From assembly GCA_963674595.2 (NCBI GenBank), contig CAXXFV010000007.1, forward strand, positions 63,280-127,279: 64,000 bases of DNA, given 5' to 3'. Within the stretch, counting starts at the first letter, position 1. Each line of letters opens with the position of its first letter. This document shows positions 5,144-33,244 of the stretch, in pieces. This DNA is from a bacterium. Lineage in GTDB: Bacteria; Zhuqueibacterota; Zhuqueibacteria; Residuimicrobiales; Krinioviventaceae. The notes beneath the pieces are model-generated. The model searched no databases and was not told where the DNA came from. It was given only the letters and a program-made list of their open reading frames with translations. Position numbers and translations under genes: made by a program.

Positions 5144-8100
5144 CTATTTCAAGATAATCATTTTTTTAGTTTTTTCAAAGCGATCCATTTTGATATAGTA
5201 TAAATAAACTCCGGATGGCAAGTCTTTTGCCTCAAAGGTAATTTTATAGGAACCGGGTTCTTTTTCATTATCCAAAAGTGTTTTTATTTTTCTGCCCAAC
5301 AGGTCAAAAACACTCAAAGAGACATGACATTTTTCCTTTACATCAAAACATATCGTTGTTGCCGGATTAAACGGATTCGGATAATTTTGATATAATTGGA
5401 ACGTTTTAGGTAATAATTCGTCAGTACCCGGATTTTCTGTAACAGAGGTAATGTTGATATTAATTTGAATAGTCGCATAAATACCTGTCAAAGTATCTGT
5501 TGCTGTTATATAAAATGTACCATACTCCTCTCCGGCAATATAAAAGCCGCTGGAATCTATTGTCCCGCCGGTTGCGCTCCACAAAACGCCTATATCCATT
5601 GTTATGTTATTTTGATCATAACCGACAGCGTAAAAATATAATGAATCTCCGGGACTTATTGAAACAGAATCCGGGAAAATTGCAACAGACTGCAGGACCG
5701 GTGTACTGGCGATAACAAGTAATGTGTCGTTAAAAGTGTGGGACGTGTTTTGTTCTATCGCTTCAATAAAAACCTTATTTTGTATTCCATCTGTTGTTCC
5801 TTCCTGAACTTTTAATGCAACAAAAACCATAGCGCCCATATTATCTGAATAATTGACTGCAAAGGAGGCTGGTGAGGTGAGCCAGCCATTTTCATCTGAA
5901 ACGTTTATGGTAACAGAACCGTTCAGGTTTTTAAAATTTTGAAAGGCCAGTGCTACAGAATCCTGGGACCCTGGTGAAATATACAGGGTATCTTTTTCGA
6001 CCGATCCTATAAATTCAGGTTCTGCTTCAAGCCAGTTTGTATAATCCGCTGATCCAAATATTTCGTTTGCATTAGGGCCGGATGCGGAACCCCACCAGTT
6101 AAGGCTTGCTTCTATTGATACAGAGGGATCTGTATTAATTAAATCATACCCGGAGTTGCTGTGAATACTGTTATATTGAATAATCGGATTTGATCCTTTT
6201 TCACAGTAAATGCCGTCACCCAGATCATTAATAATCCTGTTTCCTGAAATATCGGATGTTGAATTTACCAGATGAAAGCCTGAATTTCCGCTGTTTTCAT
6301 AGACATTATTGCTTCTTTCAATATTTCGCCATGTATGGTGCGGTGAATTGATTATAATAAATCCCGGACAATTGTGGGCAATGGTATTGTTATAAATTCG
6401 GTTACTCCTTGCCGTTTCAATATGAATTCCAGTGGAGTCATTAAACATAATTTTATTTTGAATAATCGTATTCCAGTTAGTCTCTCTGAGAATGATGCCG
6501 ACGCCGGTGTTTCCCAAATCACTTAAACCGTCAGATTGGGTTCCTATATAGTTAAGATGAATATGGTTTTCACTGCCCCCTGAAATTGAAAGACCATGGC
6601 CGTTATTACCGGAAATAATGTTTCTTTCGCCCAGAATCCGTGAACCAATAACATTATCATCACACCCCCACAGTAATGAAATCCCTTTTTGATTGGGAAT
6701 GGCATAATTTGCAAAAAAATCAGCACCTACAACATTGCCGATGATTTTCGTATAGTCCGAAGCTGTGATAAAGATTCCGTATTCAGAATTGCCGGAAACA
6801 ACGTTAAATTCAATTCGGGTGCTGTCTGACATGCTCACATTTATCCCGTTCTTGTAATTTGGAACTGCTTCACTACCGTTTTTATTCGTTCCAATACAAT
6901 TGTTTTTGACAAGACAATGATCAGACCAATAAATATTTACACCATTTTTCGAATTTCCTGATATTATATTGCTTTCAATAAAAGTAGAATCAGAGTGCTG
7001 GATAACACGGATGCCGTTATCCAGGTTACCTATAGGTCGATTTTCATCAACCATCCCTATCAGGTTTCTGTAAATTTTGTTATTTTTGGAATTGTTGATC
7101 GATACACCGTTTTCTTCATTTCCTGCAATGATATTGGGCGGAATATTAATGTCCAAACTGCCGATTGTATTTGCCTTTGTATATTGTTCCATTAAAATTC
7201 CATTCGAGTGATTTGGTTCATTATTCGCCGCAATTTGATATAGACCAATTTGGTTATTAATAATTATATTGTCATGTCCGGAGGACAGGTAAATTCCGTT
7301 TTCTCCATTACCGCATATATAATTTTTATCTTCAGGATTTGGTCCTCCAATCGTATTATAACTGCTTCTTATATCAATACCATTTGTACCATTTGCAGTT
7401 GTTTGACCCAACATATTTACGCCCACCCAGTTGGAAACAACACGATTACTGTCCGCTCCAGTATTAAGAATAATTCCCTCATCTTCATTACCGGAAACCC
7501 AGTTATCGCGAACGAGACAACTGTCGGCATAAGACAGGTGAATGCCATAACCGTTTTGAATTGCAGATGTACCGGATTCATCAAGTCCAACCATATTATA
7601 TTGTACTGTATTGTACCTTGAGTCGTAAAGACCTATGCCTGCCATGTTGTTGTCTATGCATATATTTCCTGCTCTTCGTGCAGACGTGTCGGCATCTGCA
7701 CGCATTGATCCGATTTGGTTATAATTTCCATATAGGACTGAAATCCCATCAGCAAAACATCTGGATACGGTATTGCTGTATATTTTATTTCTTTGAACGC
7801 CTCTACCCTCCAGCCGAATTCCATGAGCAAAATTTGTTACAAAATTATCGTGAACAATACAATCTTTAACTGATTCTCCATACAAGAGTATACCGGCACC
7901 TCCCAGTTCTCTGCTAAGAACTGAAAATCCGGCAATTTCTGTTGAATCCCTTTGTACATAAAATGAAATATGTTCATATAATGGTTCGTCATTGACTTTA
8001 TTTAATGATTCTTCAGGAGGAGGGATGACAACTGTAACATCCCGCCCATGTGTACTTTTAATCTTTAGTGATTTTGGGAGCGTGACGTTTTCTTCATATA

Positions 8101-10783
8101 CTCCCGGACATACGCTTATATAATGCCCGTTTTGTGTGCCCGGACTGTTTATGGCAGGTTGGATAAGCGGGAACGGGAGATCCGGATTTGTGCTTTTGTT
8201 CCATACACAGGCAATTGTTGTTGTTGGTGAATAAAGTTTTTGAGGGAGTACCGGATCTTTTTGTCCCGGTGGATTGCTTTGCGGTTCAGCATTGACATAG
8301 TTGCCTGTTAAGGCGATTCCATATTCACGAATGTCTTCCAAAGGGCACGGCATAAATGACGAGTCTGATTTTGACGGGAACAGGAAAAAGTAATAAAGTA
8401 CCCAGGTCATCGTTTCCCCTTCAGCAAGCGTTTCGCCAACATTGGCCTGGATTCCTGTTATATATCCTTCCGTGTCTACCTGCAAACGCCCGTTACTGTG
8501 TTTGCCACGGAATTCGAGAACAACAGAATCAACTTCGGAAGCTTTTGCGTGTCCCGTGGCTTCAAAGCGAACACTGCCAATGTCCCAATTTCCGGTGGCC
8601 GCAGCAAAACCACCGGAAGCAATGAGTATTTTTTCATCCGCTTCAGGCGGGCACATATCCTGTCCTCCCAGGGCATTTACGGATACGGTCAACACGGGTG
8701 TAGGTGTAGACGGCGGAAATTCGATCTCTAAAATATTTAATCCATATTTTCCAAGCGTTTCCGCATAATATTCATAACCTTTGATAACATATAAATACCA
8801 GGGAACATCCTCTTCTGTGTGCGGTAAAGGATTTTTCCCTCTCATGCTTCGTAAAACAGGAGACGGGTAATATGCGGCCATTTGACGCGGCGCCGGAATT
8901 TGCAGGCCCGGGCCGGGTGTAAGGTTATGGGTTTCTGAATCATAGTCAAAAGTTGCAATACCATAGGAAGGTAAACACATCACAACGCTGTTATTGATGA
9001 GCAGTATGTCTGAAATAGCAGCGCTGATATTCAGATCATACTGACTGGTAAATTGTGGTGCAGCCGGCGCTGAAACATCATAAAAATCAATCTTTGCCGG
9101 TCCGTTATCCTGGTCCTGATTATGTGTTAAAAATAGCGTATGGTTTGTCAACAAAACACTTTTGGGTAAATAATCCGTTGCTGTTTGAAATACGGATGCA
9201 GGAAGCGCGGGATTTGACACATTTATAACCTGCAATCCTTTTTGGGTTTCATCCCGGTTATAGGCAATGTAGGCATATTGCCCGTCATCCGACAAAGCCA
9301 TATCCATGCCGTTTCCTTCCAACAGCAGGTTTGCTTCCTCATAAGGTGCTGCCGGATTGCTGATATTCACAATATCCAGGTAACTTTGGTCACCTCCAAA
9401 ATTGTATGTTAATATATAGGCATGATCACCCCAAAAAGCCATGTCCATAACACTGGAATGACATTCATAAGTAGAAATAAAATTGATATTGGACAAATTT
9501 GATATATCATATATACTTACATTTTTGACCCAATCGGTTAGAAAAAGCATATTGTTGTGGGCAAATACTTTATTTGGATTATTGAACTGAAAGGTATCTA
9601 TTAAAACAGGTTGCTGAGGAATGTTTAAATCATATATCACGACCCTGTCATCCATTTCTGCAACATATAAAACATCATTATATATAACCTGGCTGCGTAT
9701 AACCGCCGGTTCCAGAATTTGTGCAGCCTTGACAGGTGTTTGCTGGTTTGTCAAATCCAGTAAATTGAGGGTTGAATTCATACGATAATAAAGATAGGTA
9801 TTATTGATATAATCCATCTCAAAAACCTGATTAAAATCATAATCAGTCACATGTTGAATATTCGTGGGAACTGAAATATCTAAAAGAGTAAAATCGGTAA
9901 AAGATGTTTTTAAAATTGCATAATTTCCGCCTGTTAATATGCCTCGAATAGAATAGTTGTTCGTTCCAAATGTGGAATGGATTGTGGGTGCGGTCGGTGC
10001 GGAAATATCATATACTAAAAGTCCCCCGGTGTTTTCACAAGCGCAGTATAATAAGGTACCATCCAATGCAAGGTCCCTTGCATAAGGAACGTCCACACTG
10101 TTTTCCTGCTGAACATTTGATTTATTTGCAATGTTTAAAACCAGGAGTTTATTTAACTGGGTGTTCCCGGTGTTTTTTTCTATAACATAAGCATAATTAC
10201 CAACAGGTATAAAATCGTTCAGTTCTTTTTCATAAGACCCTTTATAAACAGGAGCTTGTGTGTTTGAAATGTCAATAAAATGTACCTTTTTAATATCCTC
10301 TAATCCCGTTCCTGTCATAAAATACAAATAATCACCGTCAGCCCTGAGTTGGGTTATCGGATTTTCAATTTCATTAAAAAGAGTCCGTGAAATGTGCTGC
10401 GGATTTAAGGGATTGGACACATCCACAATTTCAAAATAATTGTTATATGTTCCGCCCCTGTAAGCAATAATAATGTAATTACCGGATAAACACAATTTAT
10501 AACCCAGCGCCGGTAATGCCAGGCTGCCGACTTTGACAAGTTGGCCTGCTTGTAATTCATATACAGCTAATTGTGCGCCCTGAATGAGGAATGTATAATC
10601 ACCCTGTGTAACTGTTTGCTGCACCACGCCGCCAATGTGACCAATTTCTGAAACGGATTGCGGCGGCTGGGATTGTGCGTTTAAAAATTGCATAAAAAGA
10701 ACCAATAAGATAATCACGCCCTTGAATGAAAAATCTGGAGATTTTTTTCCGAGTGTCATAATTGTTTCCTTTTTTTTACACAA
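5144..10783 (-). CDS. Large secreted protein: LVIVD repeats, right-handed parallel beta-helix repeats, T9SS type A-like C-terminal sorting domain
   Basis: Repeated (I/V)DIS-NP motifs in the N-terminal part, N-I-S-G-N..GI beta-helix repeats, and terminal LYQNYPNPFNP...LPSGVY...KKMIILK. The start may be the ATG at 10759. Confidence 0.85.
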   Translation of the reverse strand: MCKKKETIMTLGKKSPDFSFKGVIILLVLFMQFLNAQSQPPQSVSEIGHIGGVVQQTVTQGDYTFLIQGAQLAVYELQAGQLVKVGSLALPALGYKLCLSGNYIIIAYRGGTYNNYFEIVDVSNPLNPQHISRTLFNEIENPITQLRADGDYLYFMTGTGLEDIKKVHFIDISNTQAPVYKGSYEKELNDFIPVGNYAYVIEKNTGNTQLNKLLVLNIANKSNVQQENSVDVPYARDLALDGTLLYCACENTGGLLVYDISAPTAPTIHSTFGTNNYSIRGILTGGNYAILKTSFTDFTLLDISVPTNIQHVTDYDFNQVFEMDYINNTYLYYRMNSTLNLLDLTNQQTPVKAAQILEPAVIRSQVIYNDVLYVAEMDDRVVIYDLNIPQQPVLIDTFQFNNPNKVFAHNNMLFLTDWVKNVSIYDISNLSNINFISTYECHSSVMDMAFWGDHAYILTYNFGGDQSYLDIVNISNPAAPYEEANLLLEGNGMDMALSDDGQYAYIAYNRDETQKGLQVINVSNPALPASVFQTATDYLPKSVLLTNHTLFLTHNQDQDNGPAKIDFYDVSAPAAPQFTSQYDLNISAAISDILLINNSVVMCLPSYGIATFDYDSETHNLTPGPGLQIPAPRQMAAYYPSPVLRSMRGKNPLPHTEEDVPWYLYVIKGYEYYAETLGKYGLNILEIEFPPSTPTPVLTVSVNALGGQDMCPPEADEKILIASGGFAAATGNWDIGSVRFEATGHAKASEVDSVVLEFRGKHSNGRLQVDTEGYITGIQANVGETLAEGETMTWVLYYFFLFPSKSDSSFMPCPLEDIREYGIALTGNYVNAEPQSNPPGQKDPVLPQKLYSPTTTIACVWNKSTNPDLPFPLIQPAINSPGTQNGHYISVCPGVYEENVTLPKSLKIKSTHGRDVTVVIPPPEESLNKVNDEPLYEHISFYVQRDSTEIAGFSVLSRELGGAGILLYGESVKDCIVHDNFVTNFAHGIRLEGRGVQRNKIYSNTVSRCFADGISVLYGNYNQIGSMRADADTSARRAGNICIDNNMAGIGLYDSRYNTVQYNMVGLDESGTSAIQNGYGIHLSYADSCLVRDNWVSGNEDEGIILNTGADSNRVVSNWVGVNMLGQTTANGTNGIDIRSSYNTIGGPNPEDKNYICGNGENGIYLSSGHDNIIINNQIGLYQIAANNEPNHSNGILMEQYTKANTIGSLDINIPPNIIAGNEENGVSINNSKNNKIYRNLIGMVDENRPIGNLDNGIRVIQHSDSTFIESNIISGNSKNGVNIYWSDHCLVKNNCIGTNKNGSEAVPNYKNGINVSMSDSTRIEFNVVSGNSEYGIFITASDYTKIIGNVVGADFFANYAIPNQKGISLLWGCDDNVIGSRILGERNIISGNNGHGLSISGGSENHIHLNYIGTQSDGLSDLGNTGVGIILRETNWNTIIQNKIMFNDSTGIHIETARSNRIYNNTIAHNCPGFIIINSPHHTWRNIERSNNVYENSGNSGFHLVNSTSDISGNRIINDLGDGIYCEKGSNPIIQYNSIHSNSGYDLINTDPSVSIEASLNWWGSASGPNANEIFGSADYTNWLEAEPEFIGSVEKDTLYISPGSQDSVALAFQNFKNLNGSVTINVSDENGWLTSPASFAVNYSDNMGAMVFVALKVQEGTTDGIQNKVFIEAIEQNTSHTFNDTLLVIASTPVLQSVAIFPDSVSISPGDSLYFYAVGYDQNNITMDIGVLWSATGGTIDSSGFYIAGEEYGTFYITATDTLTGIYATIQININITSVTENPGTDELLPKTFQLYQNYPNPFNPATTICFDVKEKCHVSLSVFDLLGRKIKTLLDNEKEPGSYKITFEAKDLPSGVYLYYIKMDRFEKTKKMIILK

Positions 10784-11018: not shown

Positions 11019-14000
11019 TTGAATCTGTTTTGTAAAAAAAAGCTTTTTATACATATCATATATTTCTTTTTGTTTATTAATATATTACCGCTTTGTGCTT
11101 TTGATATTTACGTCCCGGAATTCAACGATCCCATGGAAGAAGCCTGGCGCTGGCAGGTTTTCCCGGAATTAAGCGGAAGAGGGTGCCGGTGCATGGTGGA
11201 AGATGAAAACGGATTGTTGTGGTTTGGCGTTAATGGGGGACTGTTACGTTATGATGGATTGGAATGGGATTATATTAAATTAAATAACGATTCAACTAAA
11301 ACAAATGTGGTGGCTTTATGTGCTGCCGGGGATGGCTCCATTTATGTCGGAACGCCGGATGGAATTTACCGGTTTATAAACGGCACATGGAAACAGTTTG
11401 ATTGTGATTTGGGTTTTGGTGATACTTTGGATTTTCCCAACAACATGTTTCCCATTGTTGAAGGTTCGGATCATTCAATTTGGGTTGGTACACACAAGGG
11501 TATGCTGCGCATTAAAAACAATTTAATGACTTTATATAATAAAGACCAGGTTTTTACGGATTTTAATGAAAAGACCGGCGTTCCTGAAGAAATACCTTCC
11601 TTTAACGTATTCAGTATTTATGAACAAACACCGGGAAAAATATGGTGCGGGTTACGCGATGGACGGATTTTTATTTATGAATTTAAAAATGATAGTATAA
11701 ATATTCCGCCGGTAATAAAACAAATCGATAGGGATAAAGGATATAAACGCGCTCAATTTCCGTTTATAATCGGTGCAGGGGACGAAAATATTTATATAGC
11801 CAGCGGGCAAATAGACAGGGGCGTTAATGTCTATGAAAATTCCGAATGGAAGACAATCCGGTTCAGTCAAATGTTCGGGCTGGATGATCTGCATTCCGAT
11901 GCGCTGGTTTCAAAAGACGGAACCGTTTGGGTGGCAAGTTTCGGATGTGTTTTTGCCTGTAAAAATGAAAAATGGTACATGTATAACGGGCCCGGATTAC
12001 GGCTTCCGGCCAACCGGTGGAATTTGTATGAAACCACAAACAACAGTTTATGGATAATCGGTCTGGGAAATGAGGTTTGGCGGGTTGATTTATCAAATGA
12101 TAAATGGAAGACTTTAAAAGGTCTGCATTTTCACACTCAAAACCGGAACGGGGATTTGTGGTTTATCGCCTGGGACGATGCGGTTGTAACATGTGATTCT
12201 TCGCTGCAAAACTGGAAACAGTATACAACCAAAGACAATGTGATCGATTGTCCGGTGTCTGTTCTTGCCTCACAGGATGGTAAAATTTGGGTAACCGGCA
12301 GCGATAATCAGACGGCAGCAATTTCCTGCTATAATGGTGAAAAATGGGTCAAATTTTTACATCCGGAAATTTCCTGGGGAATCGGTCGCCGGGCTGTTTT
12401 AGAGGCACAAGACGGGTCTCTCTGGTTTGGGACGGGTCCCGATTATAGCTTTGGCAATGGACATCTGGGGGGATTTGTGAGATATAAAAATTATCAACAT
12501 ATTTTTGAAACAGGTCCTGAACTGGAGTATCATCATTTTAATGACTCATTACGTCTCAGCGCAATTTATGGCATCGGCCAAAGTGCAAACGGATTGATCT
12601 GGACGGGACAGCTTGCCTGTTATAACTATGATCAAAATATAAAAAAATGGTCACGCGTATTTGAGCCCAAAGGTCTGGATGAGAGTTTTATTGACTGTAT
12701 TTATACCTCACCGAATGGAAATTTATGGATTGGAACAAGGACCAGTGGGGTGTTTTGGTATCTCAGCGAATTGAATGAATGGAGACAATTCACACGAAAA
12801 GATGGTCTTTCAAGCAACTGCATCGTCAACATTTTTGCCAAATCAGATTCCAATGTGTGGGTGGCAACCGACCAAAACATTTGTCATTTTGACGGCTTTA
12901 GCTGGACGGCTGATGTGTTTCCCAGCTTTTTTCGAATAACCAAAGACGGCATTCTTATAAAATCCACTGACGACGGCGCTTTCTGGTTTAATCAAATTCC
13001 GCAGCCCTGGATTAAACGGGCCATAAATCGTAAAGCCGTGTCACAGGAACTGGCTTCCGAATATATCACCATTCGATATATGCCGGATGATGTTCCGCCT
13101 GAAACAGTCATAACATATTCACAAGACCGGATTGCACATCCGGGAAATGTGGTATTGTCCTGGACCGGTCACGATCCCTGGAGATCAACGCCTGATGAGC
13201 TGTTACAGTATAGCTCTCGATTTGACGGCAAAGACTGGTCACCTTTTAATTCGGGAAAAAGTCATATATTTTTAAACGTCAGCGACGGGAAGCATAAATT
13301 TGAGCTTCGCGCACGCGACCGGGACATGAATATTGATCCCGTCCCGGCGCAAGTTGTTTTTTACGTTAATCCGCCTTTGTGGAAACAATACTGGTTTTTG
13401 GGTTTGATATTTTTCTTTTTAGCAACAATAACCGGATTCATTATCTACCTGGTACACCGTAACAATATTATTAAAGAATTGTCGGAATCCAAGGTGCGCT
13501 TGTTTGCAAATATTTCCCATGAACTGTGTACGCCGTTAACGTTGATTGCCGGACCGGTTAAAAATGTCTTAAAGACATTAGATCACAAATCGTCTTTATA
13601 TCAACAGCTTTCCATGGTCAGACGGAACTGTGATCGTTTAATAAAACTGGTCAGCCAGATTATGGATTTTCAAAAAATTGATTCCAACACATTAATGTTT
13701 CTTCCTCAAAAAAGTAATATTGTCTCTTTTATAAAAGATATATTTGATTCTTTCCAACCGTTGGCTTGTGACAAAAAGGTAAATTTTTTATTCAAATCGG
13801 AATTAGATTCGCTTGAGATGTTTTTTGATGGAGACAAGATAGAAAAAATATTTTATAACCTTTTTGCAAATGCTTTTAAATTTACACCGGAACATGGGAC
13901 CATTTCTATAACCATTCAACGAATTTTGGATAATCCGAAATTAAAATTAACATCAGAAAAGGATAAACTCGTTATTACTGTTAAAGACACGGGTATGGGA

Positions 14001-15053
14001 ATTCCGGCTGAAAAAATAGACAAAATTTTTAACCGTTTTTATCAGGTAAACGAATCGATTACCCAGGCAGGCGGTGCGGGAATCGGTTTGTCCTTGACAA
14101 AAGAACTGGTTGAGCGGCATCATGGTAAAATTGAGGTGCAGAGTTTTCCTGAACAGGGCACAGAATTCAGGGTTATCATTCCCATACTATCCGAATATAA
14201 AAAATCAGTTCCAACCCACATTATTGAACCGGACATAATGGAACATGAAACCGCAGCTTTAATGGTTGATTCAAACACATCAACGCCAAAAAATGAAAAG
14301 TTGAAAATACTTCTTGTTGAAGATAATGCAGATATGCGTGCGTTTATCAAAAGTGAGCTTGATTCCATGTATCACATTGTTGAAGCCGTTGACGGTCAGG
14401 ATGGTCTGCAAAAAGCGGTTTCATATACACCGGATATTATCCTCAGCGACATTATGATGCCGAATATGAACGGCATTGAAATGTCAAAAAAATTAAAGGC
14501 CGACTATCAAACCAGTCATATACCCATTATATTATTAACGGCGCGTTCTTCTCAGGAACATAAAATAAAAGGTTTGGAAACCGGCGCTGTGGATTATGTT
14601 ACAAAACCGTTCAACAGCAAAGAACTCGAACTACGCATCACCAATATAATTCAGTCACGCAAAAACCTGTGGCAGCGTTTTCACCGTGAGGATTCCGTAA
14701 AACCGGAAGAATTGAGTATCACTTCGGTGGACCAGCAATTTTTAAAACGCGCTGTCGACCTTGTTCACAAAAATATGGATGATCCGGAGTTCAATCCTCA
14801 AATCTTTGGAGAAAAAATCGGTATGAGCCGTGCCGGGTTGTATAATAAAATAAAAATGCTAACCGGTTATTCTGTCAGAGATTTTATTATCTCCATTCGT
14901 CTCAAACGGTCGGCACAATTGTTAAAAGAATCCGGTATGACCATTACACAAATTGCCTATGAAGTCGGATTTAAAGACCCGTCACATTTTACCAGGGCCT
15001 TTAAAAAACAGTTTGGTGTTCCGCCCTCCGAGTTTGCAAAAAAATCAGAATAA
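11019..15053 (+). CDS. Hybrid two-component sensor kinase/response regulator (beta-propeller sensor, Y_Y_Y, HisKA, HATPase, REC, AraC HTH)
   Basis: Repeated LW(F/I)GT propeller blades, a TM helix, ISHELCTPL H-box, GAGIGLSL G-box, SDIMMP receiver, and C-terminal IAYEVGFKDPSHFTRAFKKQFG AraC HTH. Confidence 0.95.
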   Translation: MNLFCKKKLFIHIIYFFLFINILPLCAFDIYVPEFNDPMEEAWRWQVFPELSGRGCRCMVEDENGLLWFGVNGGLLRYDGLEWDYIKLNNDSTKTNVVALCAAGDGSIYVGTPDGIYRFINGTWKQFDCDLGFGDTLDFPNNMFPIVEGSDHSIWVGTHKGMLRIKNNLMTLYNKDQVFTDFNEKTGVPEEIPSFNVFSIYEQTPGKIWCGLRDGRIFIYEFKNDSINIPPVIKQIDRDKGYKRAQFPFIIGAGDENIYIASGQIDRGVNVYENSEWKTIRFSQMFGLDDLHSDALVSKDGTVWVASFGCVFACKNEKWYMYNGPGLRLPANRWNLYETTNNSLWIIGLGNEVWRVDLSNDKWKTLKGLHFHTQNRNGDLWFIAWDDAVVTCDSSLQNWKQYTTKDNVIDCPVSVLASQDGKIWVTGSDNQTAAISCYNGEKWVKFLHPEISWGIGRRAVLEAQDGSLWFGTGPDYSFGNGHLGGFVRYKNYQHIFETGPELEYHHFNDSLRLSAIYGIGQSANGLIWTGQLACYNYDQNIKKWSRVFEPKGLDESFIDCIYTSPNGNLWIGTRTSGVFWYLSELNEWRQFTRKDGLSSNCIVNIFAKSDSNVWVATDQNICHFDGFSWTADVFPSFFRITKDGILIKSTDDGAFWFNQIPQPWIKRAINRKAVSQELASEYITIRYMPDDVPPETVITYSQDRIAHPGNVVLSWTGHDPWRSTPDELLQYSSRFDGKDWSPFNSGKSHIFLNVSDGKHKFELRARDRDMNIDPVPAQVVFYVNPPLWKQYWFLGLIFFFLATITGFIIYLVHRNNIIKELSESKVRLFANISHELCTPLTLIAGPVKNVLKTLDHKSSLYQQLSMVRRNCDRLIKLVSQIMDFQKIDSNTLMFLPQKSNIVSFIKDIFDSFQPLACDKKVNFLFKSELDSLEMFFDGDKIEKIFYNLFANAFKFTPEHGTISITIQRILDNPKLKLTSEKDKLVITVKDTGMGIPAEKIDKIFNRFYQVNESITQAGGAGIGLSLTKELVERHHGKIEVQSFPEQGTEFRVIIPILSEYKKSVPTHIIEPDIMEHETAALMVDSNTSTPKNEKLKILLVEDNADMRAFIKSELDSMYHIVEAVDGQDGLQKAVSYTPDIILSDIMMPNMNGIEMSKKLKADYQTSHIPIILLTARSSQEHKIKGLETGAVDYVTKPFNSKELELRITNIIQSRKNLWQRFHREDSVKPEELSITSVDQQFLKRAVDLVHKNMDDPEFNPQIFGEKIGMSRAGLYNKIKMLTGYSVRDFIISIRLKRSAQLLKESGMTITQIAYEVGFKDPSHFTRAFKKQFGVPPSEFAKKSE

Positions 15054-15259: not shown

Positions 15260-17447
15260 ATGTTTGGACTTCCGTTAATCGATTTGATTGTTATTGTCGT
15301 TTATTTTACTGTTGTCATTTTAATCGGTGTCTGGTCAATGCGCCGTATTAAAAACCAGGAAGATTATTTTCTGGCCGGCCGTCGCTCCGGGAAAATCATT
15401 CAAACTTTTGCTGCGTTCGGACAGGGGACATCGACAGACAATGCGGTTGGTGTCACCACCACAACCTATACAAACGGCGCCGGTGGCATCTGGAGTTCAT
15501 TGTTGCTGCTGTTTGCCACTCCCTTGTATTGGATGACATCACCCTGGTTTCGCCGGCTGCGAGTTCAAACGATGGGTGATTTTTTTCATGATCGTTATAA
15601 TTCCAAAAAAATGGCGGCATTGTATGCGGTGATCGGTTGTGTTTCCATTATGGCAACAATATCCATCGGATTTAGTGCCATGACAAAAACCATCGTTGCC
15701 ATAATCCCCAAACAAGTTTATGAACTAAACGAACAGGAAAGAGCGGAATATAACAAGGCATTGGAACACGAAATGCTGAAAAAAAGCGACTATTTGCTGT
15801 TGTCTGAAGCAGAAAAAGATCGATTAACACAACTGGACGTGGAAAAACCAAAAAAGTTATTTCCGCATGTCAGCGAAACAGCCGTGGTATGGATTGTATG
15901 TTTGATTGTTATGTTATATGCTGTTGCCGGAGGGTTGGAAGCGGCTTTCCTCTCGGATACGCTGCAGGGATTTTTTATCATTATTTTATCGTTCATTCTG
16001 TTACCCTTTGCCTATGGTAAAATCAACTCAATTTACGGGGGTGACACTATGATGGATGCCTTGCGGACCATTCATCACCGCTTACCGGAAGCTTTTTTTG
16101 ATTTGTTTGGTTCACCTACCTGTATCGATTTTACCTGGTATTATGTCGCGGCAATTTCATTCATGTTTACGATTAATGTTGTGATGAATCCCAATATGCT
16201 GTTAACTATTTCAGCAGCCAAAGACGAATTTACAGCACGGTTGGGATTTACCAGCGGCAATTATATGAAAAGGTTTTGTACCATTTTGTGGGGTATGCTG
16301 GGTTTGGCGGCTGTTGTTTTATACGCTGATCAGGTCCATAATCCGGACCTTGTCTGGGGATACACCACCTATGATTTATTAGGATCGTTAAATATGGGGC
16401 TTTTGGGATTGATGATTGCCTGTCTCATGGCAGCGCTCATGTCAACGGCAGATTGTTTGATGATAACCGCTTCCAGTTTAATTATTCATAATTTGTATCG
16501 TCCGTTTACCCGTGAAAGAAGTGAAGAGCATTATGTCTTTGTCGGCCGAATAGCCGGTGCAGGCGTGGTTATCGGCGGGGCTATTATCGCCACCCAGTTT
16601 GACAGCATTTTACAAATGCTGAAATTTACCTGGGAGTTTAATGTTGTTGTTGCCGCCAGTTTTTGGCTTGGCATGAAATGGCGCCGGGCCAATCGAAAAG
16701 CTGCGTGGGCATCAATATTGACGACGATGATGGTTTTTATGATTGGTTCGATTTTTACACCGGTAATTTTCCCTTCTCTTCGCACAAATCCCTATTTGCT
16801 TAAAATGACGAACCCCGAGCCTTTGGAACGAGTTTTTACCGCCCATGACCGGGACGTTGAGATGCGTGAAAAAGAGATTTTAAAATGGAATGAATTGAAT
16901 GAAAAGGGCCTTGCACAAACTGCTGAACCGCAACCTTTAAAAATTGGCGAAAAATTTGTTTAAAATTGACCGTCTTCCTAAAAAAGCGATTTTTTGGACA
17001 CAGGGCATAAAATACGATAAGGACGGCCAAAAATATGGCGCCGGGATGATCAGTTTGGAGCTGATTCTTGTGGACAAATTCGGATTTAAACTGGAGAAAA
17101 ATCCCTATGCCTTTAATGAAACAATCCGTGTTATTATTCGAACGATTACACCCTTTTTAATTTTGATCCTGACCGCACTTTTAACACGTCCGGATGATAA
17201 AAAGTATCTGGACCGGTTTTATGTAAGAATGAAGACAAAGGTCAATTCTGATCCTGAAAAAGATAAAGAGGAAATAGCCCTGTCTTATAAAAATCCGCAA
17301 CGGTTTGATCATCACAAACTTTTTCCAAATTCGAACTGGGAACTTTATAAATGGGACAAGGAAGATACCATTGGTTTTGGGGCGGCTGTTGGTGTTTTAT
17401 TTTTGATAATTTTAATGCTGAAATTTTTAGTGAATTTAGGCGGATAG
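15260..17447 (+). CDS. Sodium:solute symporter (SSS) family transporter, split by one extra T near 16958-16961
   Basis: EDYFLAGR, VAGGLEAAFLSDTLQ and LMAALMSTAD SSS motifs. Removing one T from GTTTAAA joins ORFs 15260..16963 and 16944..17447 (KFVKIDRLP). Confidence 0.9.
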
Positions 17448-17456
17448 GAGTTATAA

Positions 17457-17482
17457 GAGGCCGTTTCCCGAAAAGCGGCCTC
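17457..17482. terminator. Stem-loop, likely terminator
   Basis: GAGGCCG...CGGCCTC just after the symporter stop and just beyond the stop of the duplicated radical SAM 3' end on the other strand. Confidence 0.6.
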
Positions 17483-17499
17483 CTTGCATTTTTGTAATT

Positions 17500-17624
17500 T
17501 CAATTAAATTTCCTCAAATAAAACTCTGTTTCGTTATACTCGGAAACTACAAGCCGGTTCGAATGAACAAGTCCTTCCACAACTGAAAAATTTGTACCTG
17601 ATTTTTCTGTTAGTTCCGGCAGGG
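17500..17624 (-). pseudogene. Orphan 3'-terminal fragment of the radical SAM gene (left copy of 112-bp direct repeat)
   Basis: 17506-17617 matches 21049-21160 at 108/112 nt and encodes ...ELTEKSGTNFSVVEGLVHSNRLVVSEYNETEFYLRKFN*. Confidence 0.9.
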
Positions 17625-18047
17625 CTGATTTCTCTATCGGGCGTACCAATGATATGTATTATGCTCTGCATGATTCAGGGGTAGAGCATAATTATAATAT
17701 GTTTTTGATCCGAACATCAAAATAAAATATTGCCGTAAAAATGTTACCATTTCTTAAAATGTCCTTGACAATTTCATAAAAACAGTTAAATTAAAGTAAT
17801 TATCCAAAAAATTTTAACCAGGCGGTCTTGATATTTAAAAAATATTTGTGAAAATCAGGTACGATTTTAATTCAAGTATTTAAGTTTGATTTTAACCTGT
17901 ATTATGTTTTTGTAACAGGCTATTGTTTCAAAGCTTTATCAATACATTGATTTTTAGCTGATTATATTTGATAGTGTTTTACTAAAACAAAGTATAAAAC
18001 TGATCCACCTTTAGTATTAAAGCCAATTATACTATTTATTAGGCTCC

Positions 18048-18542
18048 AGGTTAGCAACCCTAAAAAAATTAAGGAGATCAATTATGAAAAACACATTTTT
18101 CAAAATTTTAGCAATTACCATCCTTGTTTTAATCTTTTCTTTTAATAGTTCTTATTGCTACACCGGTGCATGGGTTACAGTAACACAATATACAGACGCT
18201 AAGCTGGAGGAATTCGTTTATCTTACTCCGACAGCATTAAATGTTGATTATGAACTTCACATTTCCTGGAATTATAATACCGGCAGAATTTATGCGGAAG
18301 CGACTCTTAATGATGGATATGATGATGAATGGAGTTGGGTTGAAAGTGCTCGGGCAGATTATTTTTGCAGTCCTGATCCGATATTTGGCGAAACAGGGCA
18401 AATTCTGTCAGGGGCATGGGCTTATGCTTATGCTGAACGAAAAAATTCCAATGCGACGATTTGTTCATGGGCGTTCTATTCTTATTAGTTTTTATTCTTT
18501 TTAAAAAATAATTAAATAGGTCGGTTTTAGGGTTGCTAGCTT
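18048..18542. repeat. Inverted repeat pair enclosing RBS and gene 1
   Basis: AGGTTAGCAACCCTAAAA (18048-18065) and TTTTAGGGTTGCTAGCTT (18525-18542): 18 bp, with the 2 non-Watson-Crick positions both G-U compatible. Confidence 0.9.
18084..18488 (+). CDS. Secreted 134-aa beta-rich hypothetical protein, paralog 1
   Basis: AAGGAG RBS, Sec-type signal peptide, aromatic-rich strands, clear homology to the next gene. Confidence 0.85.
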   Translation: MKNTFFKILAITILVLIFSFNSSYCYTGAWVTVTQYTDAKLEEFVYLTPTALNVDYELHISWNYNTGRIYAEATLNDGYDDEWSWVESARADYFCSPDPIFGETGQILSGAWAYAYAERKNSNATICSWAFYSY

Positions 18543-18780
18543 TTATTTTTTTAATTCGATTAAAATTTAATAAAATTTTTGATCATAAGCTTTAAGAAGG
18601 GAAATATGGCATAACGATATTTTCTGTTTTGGTAGAGATGTTCCAGTTTTCATTTTTTTCAAGACATCTTTGATTCTTTTGGTTACCAAAGGAAATTGTT
18701 TTACATGTACAACAACAGGTGCATTGTTAATATAAAATTGATCCATTATAAATAAATAACAACATTTTTATTAATATTGC

Positions 18781-19277
18781 AAGTTAGCAACCCTCAAAAA
18801 AATAAGGAGATCAATTATGAAAAATAAATTTCCTATATTTTTTGCTATTATTATTTGTTTATTAATTTTTAGTTTTACGAATTCTTATGCCGTTACTACC
18901 GGGGCATGGGCGACTATTGGCTATGGACCTCCAACAGAAAAAGAAGATGAGGAGTATCTTACTCCTGCAACCGGCGTTGCCTGGGAACTACATATCTCCT
19001 GGAGTAATAATTCTGGATACGTGTCGGCAGAGGCGACCATTAATACCAATGGTGATGGTGTCTATAGCTGGGTTGAAACTAACAGAACCGAGGCATCATA
19101 TAGTCCTGAACCGGAATGGGGTGAACCCGTTAACATTTATTCAGGCGCTACGGCCTATGCCTATGTAAAAAGTACGAGTGCGAATACTACGGGTTTGTTC
19201 CTGGGCTTTTTATACCTGGTAATTTTAATATTAAATTAAATTTAAATTTGTAGCAAAGTTAAAAGGGTTGCTAACTT
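18781..19277. repeat. Inverted repeat pair enclosing RBS and gene 2
   Basis: AAGTTAGCAACCCT (18781-18794) and AGGGTTGCTAACTT (19264-19277): perfect 14 bp. Confidence 0.9.
18817..19222 (+). CDS. Secreted 134-aa beta-rich hypothetical protein, paralog 2 (extra G at 19191-19193)
   Basis: Removing one G gives ...ANTTVCSWAFYTW* (stop 19220-19222), matching paralog 1 ...SNATICSWAFYSY* and the same 134-aa length. Confidence 0.85.
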
Positions 19278-19318
19278 TTTATAATTGTTTATGTGTAGTA
19301 TTTTGCGAGGAAGTCAAT

Positions 19319-21015
19319 ATGAATGGTAGATTTTTTTCATTGATAATAGTTTTCTTTTTTGGATTTATGTTATTTTGCTCTGATCCTGATAAAAATATAA
19401 AAGAAAAAATTGTTCTCAAATTAGCTAATATTGAAATTACTCATTATGAAATGCAAAAAAAGAATTGACAGGTTCAAAAAAAAATACAAGCAAATATACC
19501 GGCAAGATGCACCAGCGGATTCTATTGAATCTTATATAAACAGTTTTGCAGATGATGTTTACATATTAGCTGAAGCCTTTAACCGGGGATATTATAACGA
19601 TGCTGATATTGATTCTCTGGTAGATTTTATGACCCGAAAAATTTTAACACAGCCAAAACGTGGTCAGGTGTATGAGAGATTGATCCTGGATCGTGTTTAA
19701 AATCACGGATGATATACTTTATGATGCTTTTAATAAAAACAAAAAAGAGTTTAAATTAAAAATATTAAAATTTGCCGACCATCAGGATATGCACAAAACT
19801 CTGGGACCGGACACGCTTTTATCTTTGGAACGTTTTGAAAAAGTTGCCCATGAAAATAAAAACAGTCAATTTGTAAATATATTTGAAGCGCCTTTTATTT
19901 GGCCGTCTTATGGTATTTGGAAAGTCCAGGATAAAATATTCCAAATGAAAAAAGGTGAAATTTCACCTCCTTTACATGCTAATGATGGTATTTATATCAT
20001 TTATGTTAAGGATATTAGTACAAGGAACCAAAAAACATTTGAAGAGGAACGTCCATCTCTGGAGTGGAGTTTAAAAAATATTTATGAGGAAAAATTATTT
20101 TTAGCGGTAAATGATTCGATGTTTAAAGCTTGCAATCTGGTTATTAATAATGATGCTTGTGAGGAATTTTTTAAGCTGATTCCATCTTCTTATTCTGTAA
20201 TATTAGAAAAAGAAACGTTTGCAGAAATTTTGGGTGATACGATAGAAACCTATCAGTATGACAATGAAAAAAACAATGTTACGGTTGATGGATTTTTAGA
20301 TTTTTATTCAAAATGTTTAATTAAAAAACCAATAATTTCAAAAGATATGTTAAAAGATTATTTAAAAGAGCTGGTTAGGGAAAAGTGCTATTATCAATAT
20401 GCAAAAAATCATAACATTTTAGAACAACCCCAATTAAAACTTGATATAAAAAATTATAAAAATAAAGTTGTTTTGTCAAAATTCATTGACAATGAGTTGA
20501 AAAAAAATATTAAAGTTTCTGAAGACGAACTATTACATGAATATGAAAATAATATCAATTCTTTCAAGCAGGTGAAATCAATAATTGCTAATTTGTTTTA
20601 TTTTAATTCCGATCATCATGCATATAAGAGCCTGGAGAAATTAAAAAACTGTTCTGTTGATAGTATTAAATATATTACTAAAGATGGAAATCTGAACGGC
20701 TTGTTAAAGACAGAGTTTAATAGAAAATTAGATTATAATAGTTCATTGTTTAATGAAATGATTTCAAATAGAATACAAAGACTGCGACCCGAACAATTTA
20801 GTTTTCCTCTCAGACTAGAGGACGGATCTTTTTTAATTGTACAAAAATTAAATGATCAGGGTAACGTTATTAAATCTTTCGATGAGGTACGAGACTATTT
20901 AAATAAAAAATTACTTGATCTCAAAGTAAATAATGAAAAACCGCTTTTTATTAAAAGTTTGAAAGAGAAATATACACCTGAAATTTCTGTGGATAAAAAA
21001 CAGTTTTTATTGTGA
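19319..21015 (+). CDS. SurA/PrsA-like parvulin peptidyl-prolyl isomerase/foldase lipoprotein, split by two +1 indels (near 19455 and 19697)
   Basis: GAGG RBS and ATG 19319; lipoprotein-like signal (FMLFC); KIFQMKKGEISPPL...GIYIIYV and FSFPLRLEDGSFLIV...KSFDEVR parvulin-like motifs. Three ORFs join on removing one A and one T. Confidence 0.78.
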
Positions 21016-21045: not shown

Positions 21046-21979
21046 TCAAAATTTTCTCAAATAAAACTCTGTTTCGTTATACTCGGAAACTACAAGCCGG
21101 TTTGAATGAACAAGTCCTTCCACAACCGAAAAATTTGTACCCGATTTTTCTGTTAGTTCCAATAGGGCCTGTTTGGTCATCGGATGTACGGATGTTATGC
21201 TCAAAATGTCCTTTTCAATGTTTCCGGTGTATGCAAAATCATTGCCCTCGTAGCCTGTTAGATATTCTACCCGGTCAAAATTTGACTGGAAAATTTGATA
21301 CAGTTCAATCAGCTTTTGTCCTTCAGGCGGCTGGGTACGTTTTTCTGCCGGGGGCCGAATGGGTATGCTGATATAGGATTTTTCCGGATTTATTCCTTTA
21401 ATAAACAGAGATACATTTTTTATGTTCTCTGGCGAATCATTTAAATCTTTTACCAGCATGGTTTCGGTAACGAGCGTGCCGTTAAATTCTTGTGAAAATT
21501 GAAGGATGCCCTTGAATATATCATCGAGACTCAAATCTCTTACAGATCTGTTTATTTTTCTCCACAACGCAGAATCGGCGGCATCAACTTTAACAGAAAC
21601 CCAATCAGCCTGACATAGTGCATCTCTGACATGCTGTGAATGTATAAGCGATGAATTGGTAATAACGGCGATTTTTTTCCCAAACTGTTTCAAGGTTTTT
21701 ATCAGATTACCAAGATTTTCATCCAATGTCGGTTCACCGTCTGCGACAAAAGTCAGATAATCAATGGTTTCTTTGTTTTTTTTCAGCATTTATTATTTTT
21801 TCCTGTACGTCATTGATAATCATTTCAGGATCATAAAATGTCTGTCGTTTTGATGTCATTTTTCCGGCTTTACCCAGTTGACAGTAAACACAGGAATATG
21901 TACATGCCTTTGGTGGTATATTGTTAATGCCGATGCTTTTTCCCAATCGCCTTGATGGAACAGGTCCGAATGCAATCAT
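21046..21979 (-). CDS. Radical SAM protein (COG0731/TYW1-like Fe-S oxidoreductase), split by an extra base near 21776-21783
   Basis: FGPVPSRRLGKSIG, CTYSCVYC (CxxxCxxC), DGEPTL and AVITNSSL motifs. The two ORFs join on shortening an A8 run. Confidence 0.9.
21049..21160. repeat. Right copy of 112-bp direct repeat (current 3' end of radical SAM gene)
   Basis: Matches 17506-17617 with 4 substitutions. Confidence 0.92.
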
Positions 21980-31550: not shown

Positions 31551-31835
31551 ATGTCTCAGGAATTACTAACAGGAATAACAATTTTTATCCTTTCTATCTT
31601 TGTCGGATTTGAGGTGATAACCAAAGTACCTCCGACACTGCATACCCCGCTCATGTCCGGGGCTAATGCTATTTCAGGAATAGCCGTAATCGGGGCCATT
31701 TTGGTTTCCGGGAGAACAGGCACCAATCTTGAAATAATATTCGGTTTTATTGCCATTGTATTTGCCACCATAAATGTTGTCGGCGGATTTTTAGTAACAG
31801 ATCGAATGCTTCAAATGTTTAAAAAGAAAAAGTGA
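31551..31835 (+). CDS. pntAB: NAD(P) transhydrogenase subunit alpha part 2
   Basis: LHTPLMSGANAISG and NVVGGFLVTDRMLQMF. Confidence 0.97.
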   Translation: MSQELLTGITIFILSIFVGFEVITKVPPTLHTPLMSGANAISGIAVIGAILVSGRTGTNLEIIFGFIAIVFATINVVGGFLVTDRMLQMFKKKK

Positions 31836-33244
31836 GATACATTATGGAAGCCTTGAGGACATTAATTACGTTATCCTATTTGCTAGCCGCATCATGTTTC
31901 ATTCTCGGATTAAAGTTAATGAGTTCGCCGGTTTCTGCCCGCCGCGGGAATATGATTGCAGCGATAGGTATGTTAATAGCTGTTTTGGTTACATTGCTGG
32001 ACAGGCAGGTACTCAGTTTTACCTGGATATTTATCGGTATTTTAGCCGGAAGCTTAATCGGCGTTCTATCGGCACGCCTGGTAAAAATGACGGCCATGCC
32101 GCAGATGGTGGGTATTTTTAACGGATTCGGTGGCGGCGCATCTGCCCTGGTAGCTATGGCGGAATTTATGCGTTTCAGCTCAAATCCTGGAACGGTTATG
32201 CCGATGGATACATCAATAACCATTATTTTAAGTATTATTATCGGTAGTGTTACATTTACCGGAAGTTTAATCGCTTTTGCGAAACTTGAGGGAATTATCC
32301 ATGGTGCCCCTGTAACGTTTCCCTTTCATAAAGTTTTCAGCGGTCTAGTTTTATTGTTATCCGTTATATTAGGTGCATATATCGTGGAGTGGGGTGCGGA
32401 TCCGCTTGTTTTTTATCTTATCCTGGGTTTAGCTTTGTTATATGGCATTTTGTTTGTACTGCCTATCGGCGGTGCTGATATGCCGGTGGTCATATCGTTG
32501 TTAAATTCTTTTTCCGGTTTGGCTGCCTGTACGGCCGGTTTTGTTGTGCAAAACAATATTTTGATTATTGCCGGTTCGCTTGTAGGGGCGGCAGGTTTGA
32601 TTTTGACCCAGATCATGTGCAAAGCTATGAATCGATCTCTGATCAATGTATTGTTTAGTGCTTTTGGAACCGGTGACATGGCGGCAGGCAGTGCGACGGC
32701 ATCCGGTGAAAAATCAGTCCATACCGTTGAAGGTGAAGAAGCCGCTATGGTATTGGGCTATGCCAAATCTGTTGTTATCGTACCCGGCTATGGAATGGCT
32801 GCTGCTCAGGCGCAGCACACTGTTCGTGAGTTTTCCGAGTTACTGATTCAGCGAGGCATTCAAATGCGCTTTGCCATTCACCCTGTTGCCGGACGTATGC
32901 CGGGTCACATGAATGTTTTGCTGGCCGAAGCAAATGTTCCCTATGATTTGTTATATGATATGGATGATATTAATCCTGAATTTTCCCACACCGATGTGGT
33001 TTTAATTATTGGCGCCAATGATGTTGTGAATCCGGCGGCCAGAACAGACACAGCCTCACCGATTTATGGAATGCCCATACTTGATGTTGATAATGCACAG
33101 CATATTATTATTATCAAACGCAGCCTTAATCCGGGATTTGCAGGAATTGATAATGAATTGTTTTACAATCCCAAAACGCTTATGTATTTTGGCGGTGCAA
33201 AGGAAAAAGTTCAGGAATTGGTTACTGAGGTGAAAAAAATGTAA
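31832..33244 (+). CDS. pntB: NAD(P) transhydrogenase subunit beta
   Basis: GGADMPVVISLLNS, HPVAGRMPGHMNVLLAEA and GANDVVNPAA. Confidence 0.98.
   Translation: MRYIMEALRTLITLSYLLAASCFILGLKLMSSPVSARRGNMIAAIGMLIAVLVTLLDRQVLSFTWIFIGILAGSLIGVLSARLVKMTAMPQMVGIFNGFGGGASALVAMAEFMRFSSNPGTVMPMDTSITIILSIIIGSVTFTGSLIAFAKLEGIIHGAPVTFPFHKVFSGLVLLLSVILGAYIVEWGADPLVFYLILGLALLYGILFVLPIGGADMPVVISLLNSFSGLAACTAGFVVQNNILIIAGSLVGAAGLILTQIMCKAMNRSLINVLFSAFGTGDMAAGSATASGEKSVHTVEGEEAAMVLGYAKSVVIVPGYGMAAAQAQHTVREFSELLIQRGIQMRFAIHPVAGRMPGHMNVLLAEANVPYDLLYDMDDINPEFSHTDVVLIIGANDVVNPAARTDTASPIYGMPILDVDNAQHIIIIKRSLNPGFAGIDNELFYNPKTLMYFGGAKEKVQELVTEVKKM

Follow-up and report, generated by a model that had tools for sequence, protein, structure and literature searches.

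The stretch analysed here, 64,000 nt of contig CAXXFV010000007.1 (assembly GCA_963674595.2, positions 63,280 to 127,279; contig C7 and "the window" hereafter) from a bacterium of the phylum Zhuqueibacterota, raises a simple question: what are the two small neighbouring genes at 18084..18488 and 18817..19222, whose products resemble no known protein family? We find that they encode paralogous exported proteins, that each gene lies between complementary arms predicted to join the two ends of its mRNA, and that the pair adjoins the gene of a parvulin-type foldase from a lineage-restricted clade. The putative clamp, the foldase-linked module and the foldase clade are new here; the inverted repeats and the foldase connection had escaped the original prediction. 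Putatively clamped message, small exported protein and private foldase make up a conserved three-part scaffold that sets the pair apart from ordinary hypothetical proteins.

Two paralogous genes and an assembly error

Gene 1 (18084..18488, + strand), supported by its open reading frame (ORF), paralogy, dN/dS and composition, encodes the 134-aa precursor P0001. Gene 2, on the same strand, is disrupted in the assembly, where it reads as a 140-aa protein (P0002, 18817..19239) with a hydrophobic tail beyond residue 125. Aligned with the DNA of gene 1, it has a single surplus base, a G added to the GGG run of 19191-19193; in the +1 frame the sequence continues as CSWAFYTW and reaches a stop at 19222, giving a 134-aa paralog (18817..19222). 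Contigs from a single study, in which two samples were sequenced as runs X2 and X4, have one letter fewer at 19191, and an exhaustive profile search retrieved P0004, a 134-aa public protein with the same reading as the repaired gene and the C-terminal end ...NTTVCSWAFYTW. Because these contigs lack the G and P0004 has a plain 134-aa frame, the frameshift in gene 2 is an assembly artefact and not biology; a programmed frameshift is ruled out on the same grounds. P0004 shares an 18,230-nt public contig with P0003, a 99% identical copy of P0001 from a different assembly. Past the extra G, the CSWAFY codons of the two copies differ at synonymous third positions only (TCA/TCC, GCG/GCT, TTC/TTT).

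That the window holds two 134-aa paralogs sharing about 66 identities after repair of one indel was the starting point of the original prediction, and it holds. BLASTP aligns P0001 with P0002 at 60 identities in 126 positions (E 7e-33), and the three-row alignment that includes P0004 has 66 invariant columns. All the conserved blocks named at that time (TGAW, YLTP, ELHISW, AEAT, SWVE, SPxPxxGE, SGAxAYAY and CSWAFY) were found in this alignment, and both proteins do end in an aromatic residue (...CSWAFYSY in P0001, ...CSWAFYTW in P0004). The genome itself (6.6 Mb, 37 contigs) has just these two copies of the family. Run X3, which belongs to a second study, has a contig that spans 17778-18501, gene 1 included, and shows 6 differing letters plus 2 gaps, with 5 substitutions listed.

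Over 124 aligned codons, the Nei-Gojobori method gives proportions of nonsynonymous and synonymous differences (pN and pS) of 0.34 and 0.68 between the two copies, with a dN/dS of ~0.26; in the mature part, pS is 0.71 and saturated. Given the low pN relative to pS, both ORFs are real genes under purifying selection. The earlier idea that their divergent loops reflect diversifying selection finds no support in the overall ratio, and two sequences with saturated dS cannot reveal positive selection in loops. The Shine-Dalgarno (SD) sequence AAGGAG stands 8 nt ahead of the ATG in both genes, in an organism with a 4-mer SD core ahead of 779 of 1702 long ORFs.

The two precursors carry a Sec-type signal (MKN..., a hydrophobic core and N-S-Y-C/A), in agreement with the prediction that they are secreted. 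Placed by the -3/-1 rule, cleavage would occur after SYC/SYA, removing a signal of ~25 aa and leaving a mature protein of 109 aa. A lipoprotein reading of P0001, based on Cys25, was dismissed given the Ala at that position in copy 2. Both proteins are predicted to be rich in beta structure, as had been proposed, and their mature parts are strongly acidic (13-15 D+E vs 3-5 K+R). They are also dense in Ar-X-Ar motifs (two aromatic residues separated by any residue), with 6.4 per 100 aa in P0001 (7 motifs in 109 aa) and 3.7 in P0004 (4 motifs), against a mean of 0.98, a 99th percentile of 3.0 and a maximum of 5.25 in a proxy proteome of 3295 long ORFs.

The assembly contains further single-base insertions relative to the short-read contigs, at 17890 and 19455; near 19697, a loose end would agree with one T too many in the assembly. 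Two other genes are split at A/T homopolymers, probably by the same type of error: an SSF symporter (15260..16963 / 16944..17447) and a radical-SAM gene (21046..21789 / 21761..21979). One X2 contig tracks the window to 18518, just short of the 3' arm of gene 1, and then continues with 255 unrelated letters, and none of the listed contigs bridges 18543-18609; the departure may correspond to a strain variant or to a branch of the assembly graph in an AT-rich spacer.

Complementary arms around each gene

Gene 1 is preceded by a 5' arm at 18048..18065, 5 nt upstream of its SD sequence (18071-18076), and followed, 36 nt past the stop, by a 3' arm at 18525..18542, after which comes TTTTATTTTTTT. These arms form 18 pairs, including 2 G.U, around an exact core of 14 nt (18052-18065, TAGCAACCCTAAAA) that is 100% complementary. 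Gene 2 lies within a similar inverted repeat, predicted to fold into 14 bp between 18781..18794 (AAGTTAGCAACCCT) and 19264..19277, the latter 41 nt past the true stop and followed by TTTATAATT; all coordinates are on the + strand. With one mismatch allowed, the 11-mer GTTAGCAACCC occurs at four sites in the window, 18050 (+), 18530 (-), 18783 (+) and 19265 (-), which flank both genes exactly; 0.81 sites were expected, and none of 100 shuffles reached four. Elsewhere in the genome, the 10-mer TAGCAACCCT has three other matches, the level of a reversed-pattern control. The stretch that begins with the 5' arm and ends at the ATG agrees at 35 of 37 nt between the two units, and this identity, standing alongside saturated synonymous sites, indicates that the leader is constrained.

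Brackets of the type GCAACC...GGTTGC of at least 12 nt occur in the whole genome only at gene 1, gene 2 and a third gene on contig C6; one more match in that scan, of 12 nt, is a cross-pairing to which gene 1 contributes the 5' arm and gene 2 the 3' arm. The gene on C6 encodes P0007, a 127-aa exported protein that ends ...YVSWY and lies directly 3' of the gene for P0010, a paralog of the foldase in the window. Its bracket consists of GGTCGGCAACCTTAA ahead of the SD sequence and TTAAGGTTGCCGGCC past the stop, with 17 pairs including one G.U. Compared with those on C7, the C6 bracket has different bases at -1, -2 and +1 relative to the GCAACC core on both arms, so that the changes compensate each other. 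Wherever the three loci depart from Watson-Crick pairing (3 positions), the sense strand has a G.U pair. In genus g16, from another family of the order, two genomes (G023 and G031) encode 128-aa exported proteins, P0011 and P0012, directly upstream of a peptidyl-prolyl isomerase (PPIase) homolog. Their bracket is a perfect 18-bp inverted repeat, GGGATAATTCATATCATG, of a sequence unrelated to the arms of our genome; its 5' arm abuts the SD stretch TTGGAGGG and its 3' arm begins 22 nt past the stop. Across loci, the arms are found 1-8 nt before the SD sequence and 25-41 nt past the stop, followed by a T-rich run. As judged by comparing these loci, which are few as independent cases, the complementarity with its compensating changes is shown to go beyond chance.

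In agreement with this pattern, the minimum-free-energy and centroid structures predicted by RNAfold for the mRNAs of gene 1, gene 2 and P0007 all have the arm stem closing the whole message. We infer from these models that the arms pair as an end-to-end helix of the mRNA in vivo. An Rfam search of 17300-19800 gave no match at E<=1. The arms of the two units are also cross-complementary: the arm behind gene 1 (3', 18525-18542) can pair with the one ahead of gene 2 (5', 18781-18798) over 18 nt at 89%, at a distance of 238 nt, and the two outermost arms, 5' of gene 1 and 3' of gene 2, can do so over 12 nt. Alternative pairings are thus possible on a two-gene transcript.

How often such brackets arise was examined on 2404 SD-preceded ORFs of 60-260 aa (bracket GC >=0.3). 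Six of them are enclosed by an exact bracket of 12 nt or more, compared with 0-4 in seven controls (0, 1, 1, 2, 0, 4, 1); the three genes above account for half of the six, and the others encode an IS200-like transposase and two more small exported proteins. RNAduplex energies of the flanks of the same 2404 ORFs did not separate real from shuffled pairs (means of -28.5 vs -28.1 kcal/mol).

Several other repeats were noted in the genome. On contig C8 (minus strand, 52317-52691), a gene for a 124-aa exported protein (MSIKKTGVIL...) is flanked by an exact 15-nt inverted repeat, AAACCGAGAGTATTT, with arms ~85 nt before the start and 58 nt past the stop; this could be another mRNA clamp, unrelated in sequence, or a chance occurrence at the background rate of the scan. 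A 97-aa lipoprotein-like ORF (MKKMVSLLMLVILVSMFMGC...) on contig C4 (321803-322096, +) has a 13-nt inverted repeat, AAAGGCCATCGAA, on either side. Contig C23 carries at least two copies of IS200/RAYT-like 184-aa transposase ORFs (31590-32144 in minus-strand scan coordinates, 900856-901410 on the plus strand), one of them with 13-nt inverted-repeat flanks and very strong flank pairing.

The same repeats could instead act on DNA, either as the ends of an invertible cassette for phase variation or as terminal repeats that delimit a small, non-autonomous mobile cassette. Inverted repeats of 14-18 bp do enclose each complete gene together with its SD sequence, the arms match within a locus and differ between loci, as in invertons, and the X2 contig leaves the reference at 18518, beside the 3' arm of gene 1. 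However, the contigs of four runs contain no joints or strand changes (a comparison of low power, since contigs drop rare variants), and run contigs cross the arms labelled A, C and D colinearly. No recombinase or transposase was found among 18 ORFs scanned between 1 and 31.5 kb, nor is any target-site duplication visible, and the orientation is the same in the two g16 species and in the strain of run X3. All three mismatches are restricted to G.U on the sense strand, and the fixed placement of the arms relative to SD and stop, with a T-rich run behind, is as expected of RNA signals. Because of the missing joints and recombinase, the sense-strand G.U positions and the fixed placement, a role at the DNA level is less likely than the RNA clamp, and we regard it as quite improbable.

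A foldase clade with bracketed neighbours

Downstream of gene 2, a gene at 19319..21015 (+) encodes a parvulin-type (PrsA/SurA/PEB4-like) PPIase with an N-terminal signal (Pfam Rotamase_2, E 2.6e-16). In the assembly it is broken by single-base insertions into ORFs 19268..19468, 19431..19700 and 19693..21015, which are colinear with P0010; reads lack one letter at 19455. P0010, on contig C6, is the only paralog in the genome (557 aa, 29% identity) and contains two Rotamase_2 stretches, and the PPIC-type Rotamase_2 matches of the foldases reach E 2.6e-16 and 2e-19. In the PDB, the best match of the neighbouring foldase is 3rfw, 'cell-binding factor 2' (E 2.4e-7). Matches of the foldase to the NCBIfam equivalogs for PrsA and peptidylprolyl isomerase lie far below their cut-offs.

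Homologs of P0010 are present in 22 of 42 other genomes of the order, at ~20-27% identity. Twenty-five PPIase loci were scanned for small exported ORFs, which revealed genus g16 as one more bracketed case; six non-clade PPIase loci inspected by hand had no bracketed small exported gene. In a tree of 21 homologs (rows of at least 400 aa; 3 of 24 phmmer matches were dropped as shorter), the four foldases with a bracketed small neighbour fall on one side of a branch with a support of 97 in the Shimodaira-Hasegawa-like approximate likelihood ratio test (SH-aLRT), and none of 500 label shuffles gave a grouping as low. A profile of this clade, applied to 125 genomes of the class, retrieved members (E<=1e-195) only in our genome (two copies), G023 and G031, with the next best match at 5.7e-25. 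That search covered 30 loci, of which only the 3 clade loci have an exported-looking small ORF bracketed by 11 nt or more; two other short brackets (11 and 13 nt) enclose ORFs of a different kind. A bracketed small exported gene thus adjoins the foldase in all 4 of the 4 clade members, in two families of the order. Phylogenetic and gene-order comparison thereby shows that the foldases with a bracketed small neighbour form one clade, and that the linkage is repeated. A complex prediction for P0010 (residues 21-557) with P0007 (23-127) gave a score of 0.04 (mark, 0.32).

The surroundings of the g16 loci offer some further details. There, the PPIase homolog is followed by an ORF that remains open to the end of the locus; its N-terminus is carboxypeptidase-regulatory-like, as is typical for TonB-dependent receptors (named by eye). 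G023 and G031 (L033/L039) differ in their upstream synteny, the break lying just ahead of the conserved leader, and one of the g16 species has an IS110-like transposase upstream (also named by eye).

Searches for known families

That the small proteins belong to an unrecognised family was part of the original prediction, and Pfam, NCBIfam, PHROGs, PADLOC and PDB gave no match above threshold. In detail, Pfam-A hmmscan at E<=10 returned no family for P0001 and P0004 and three unrelated sub-threshold matches for P0002; NCBIfam, PHROGs and PADLOC had no match at all, and the best PDB match of the small proteins in a profile search had an E of 2. A word-indexed search of 5.8e9 proteins found P0003 only, and the best match in the genomes of 40 relatives had an E of 0.064. 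In the ESM Atlas, the whole protein scores 0.85 at best and the mature part (named clusters only) 0.79, both at chance level. Collections of genome contigs and metagenome contigs, scanned with both small-protein alignments, contained nothing relevant; the sole metagenome match, L029, was rejected as a chance IYPNDD in an unrelated 215-aa ORF adjoining a large Gram-positive-type surface protein.

An hmmsearch of 1.84e9 representative proteins retrieved P0003, P0004 and two giant repeat proteins of the type IX secretion system (T9SS), P0005 and P0006. These matches suggest another explanation, namely that the C-terminal 70 residues are a free-standing immunoglobulin-like (Ig-like; Ig_7/PKD/SprB-type) relative of giant T9SS adhesin repeats, folded as a single-domain beta-sandwich. 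P0005 (E 1.2e-8, 9 stretches) and P0006 (E 2.8e-4) both carry Ig_7, PKD_6 and Por_Secre_tail, and the P0005 alignment covers profile positions 64-132 and matches W, GxY and C. Nevertheless, the single stretches of P0005 score a mere 7.7-11.1 bits, and those of P0006 do not exceed 6.3 bits (independent E of 3e4 or worse). The total is a sum over near-identical repeats (bias 48.7), and the registers differ between the two giants. P0001 and P0002 have no Ig-like match in Pfam even at E 10. We consider this relationship very improbable.

The faint resemblance to lactococcin 972 once seen at the C-terminus was not recovered: the profile of that family remains unmatched even at E 10 by P0001 and P0002, and P0004 likewise has no match. 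The proteins are small, Sec-exported and beta-rich like lactococcin 972, but they are acidic instead of basic, do not match its Pfam model even at E 10 and have no adjacent ABC-transporter or immunity genes. The bacteriocin role suggested for them receives no support from a family match, from the strongly acidic mature proteins or from the genes adjoining the pair, which include neither transporter nor immunity genes.

Relationship among the small-protein groups

The proteins found at the clade loci fall into three sequence groups, P0001/P0004, P0007 and P0011/P0012. They have in common a mature part of 105-109 aa, a signal peptide, an excess of acidic residues (D+E 13-22 vs K+R 1-5) and 12.5-20% aromatic residues, and the signals of P0001/P0004 and P0011 are alike (MKN... 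and N-x-Y-A/C). The P0011 type is present in 2 of the 125 class genomes, and the P0007 type in 1 of 43 genomes of the order, with two relatives, P0008 (77% identity) and P0009 (68%), on one public contig of 52,990 nt. Where this can be checked in the genomes at hand, each sequence type is limited to one genus. Taken together, these comparisons are most parsimoniously read as one ancestral module whose small gene would diverge very fast and duplicate repeatedly in tandem; alternatively, the small genes may have been swapped for unrelated ones rather than diverged. Common descent of the groups rests on context because sequence similarity between them is not significant.

Proposed role

Our tentative proposal, to which we give slightly less than an even chance, is that these fast-evolving, acidic, aromatic-rich exported beta proteins are envelope-bound clients of a dedicated foldase and that their mRNAs are clamped in the manner of the hbs message. 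The foldase-client relationship, the final location and the cellular role are all putative. The module would comprise one or two small exported-protein genes adjoining the gene of a dedicated SurA/PrsA/PEB4-like foldase, restricted to one lineage. In the mRNA of the small gene, the 5' untranslated region (UTR), just 5' of a strong SD sequence, would pair with the 3' UTR in a helix of 14-18 bp that loops out the ORF, and this end-to-end helix could set the processing, stability or translation of the message, by analogy with hbs mRNA. Sec would export the precursor and signal peptidase I would cleave it; the foldase encoded alongside would then escort or fold the aromatic-rich beta protein in the periplasm, toward a site in the outer membrane or envelope.

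The model for the mRNA part of this proposal comes from Bacillus subtilis, for which the source reports a 14-bp contact of the 5' UTR with the 3' UTR of hbs mRNA that modulates cleavage by RNase Y (PMC5737220; Braun, Durand & Condon 2017). The likeness lies in a UTR helix of ~14 bp (14-18 bp and predicted in our case), a short message of monocistronic size and a strong SD sequence. On the other hand, our organism belongs to another phylum with other RNases, the proteins are exported whereas the hbs product is a nucleoid protein, and the arms have no sequence in common. A further difference is that here the helix appears to be kept through compensating changes across paralogous loci, judging by the nucleotide comparison.

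For the protein part, SurA is described as recognising Ar-X-Ar motifs, which are enriched in outer-membrane proteins (OMPs) (PMC11401910). The neighbouring foldase resembles SurA, PrsA and PEB4 in its PPIC-type domains and N-terminal export signal, and P0001 and P0004 would suit it as Ar-X-Ar-rich, aromatic-ended substrates. It differs in that it belongs to its own clade, present in 3 of 125 genomes, and in that general chaperones are not normally encoded beside one small client. The original prediction had suggested, among other possibilities, small outer-membrane beta proteins with a C-terminal signal for BAM, the machinery of beta-barrel assembly. Another of those possibilities, fibre or pilin subunits, gained no evidence in either direction. 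The envelope location gains indirect support from the foldase neighbour and the very high Ar-X-Ar content, but the C-terminal signal does not extend to all groups: the aromatic end looked for in a BAM beta-signal is present in P0001 and P0004, whereas P0011 and P0012 end ...GLSVTN.

A number of observations weigh against the foldase-client proposal. The P0007 group has 0-1 Ar-X-Ar motifs, so that the client-like signature is not general, and P0011 ends in N, not in an aromatic residue. OMPs do not usually carry a net charge of about -10, as these proteins do. AlphaFold2 (AF2) models from three-row alignments have a low predicted local distance difference test (pLDDT), 49.1 for P0001, with partial sheets only, and 35.0 for P0007. 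Between groups, BLASTP gives E values of 0.014-0.16, mostly across the signal peptides, and hhalign probabilities of 2-8%. The rows of the foldase clade are of unusual amino-acid make-up, one row is the 440-aa fragment, and the tree comes from a quick search. Gene order also varies: on C7 and in genus g16 the small genes lie upstream of the foldase, on C6 downstream. Finally, the mature part of 109 aa is shorter than the known 8-stranded outer-membrane barrels.

In a more specific version, which we think rather unlikely, the module would define a new class of exported mini beta-proteins (about 105-109 aa when mature). These might be outer-membrane barrels smaller than all others, or might depend obligately on a private foldase of the SurA kind; they would evolve fast enough for paralogs to lose all sequence similarity, yet keep the foldase neighbour, the signal and an mRNA helix controlling their expression, as a cassette of a chaperone with its clamped client. 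Small 8-stranded outer-membrane beta-barrels are of the OmpX, Ail and OmpA-TM type. Our proteins resemble them in having about eight amphipathic strand-like segments with short turns, many aromatic residues and, for P0001 and P0004, an aromatic C-terminus; they differ by the shorter mature part, the absence of a Pfam match, the strong acidity and the non-aromatic ends of P0011 and P0012.

A different possibility, unlikely in our view, is that the proteins are soluble extracellular factors (metal- or calcium-binding, adhesive or bacteriocin-like) that are released and act independently of the foldase, whose adjacency would then reflect ancestry within a duplicated segment. Small size and a signal peptide fit such factors, as do the strong acidity, the Gly/Ser/Asp-rich stretches and the DIDWDGG of P0007 and P0009, which we take to be a DxDxDG-like motif. 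Fast divergence is common in secreted factors, and tandem duplication has recurred, with P0001/P0004 here and P0008/P0009 on one contig elsewhere. Against this stands the linkage to the foldase in all four clade members across two families. Moreover, no model of lactococcin 972, bacteriocins, toxins or defence was matched, and no immunity, transporter or processing genes adjoin the pair. Anionic charge is atypical for membrane-active bacteriocins, which counts against a bacteriocin-like factor in particular.

If the clamped foldase-client reading is right, the locus represents a compact system that ties 5'/3'-UTR pairing to the expression of small exported proteins outside the model phyla, shows how specialised periplasmic foldases may gain private clients, and illustrates that small secreted proteins can diverge past recognition with their regulatory and genomic scaffold fixed. 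If it is wrong, the genes are just two lineage-specific hypothetical exported proteins. Detection by context, that is by foldase clade and clamp, found relatives that exhaustive sequence searches had missed, a practical approach for annotating orphan secreted proteins.

Other genes of the window

Further upstream, the window encodes on the minus strand a 938-aa protein with FG-GAP and dockerin domains (2174-4990) and an 1879-aa protein with LVIVD, beta-propeller, NosD/beta-helix and T9SS C-terminal sorting domains (5144-10783). A hybrid two-component regulator lies at 11019-15053. The organism is thus of the T9SS-bearing Fibrobacteres-Chlorobi-Bacteroidetes (FCB) group type, yet it uses Shine-Dalgarno sequences.

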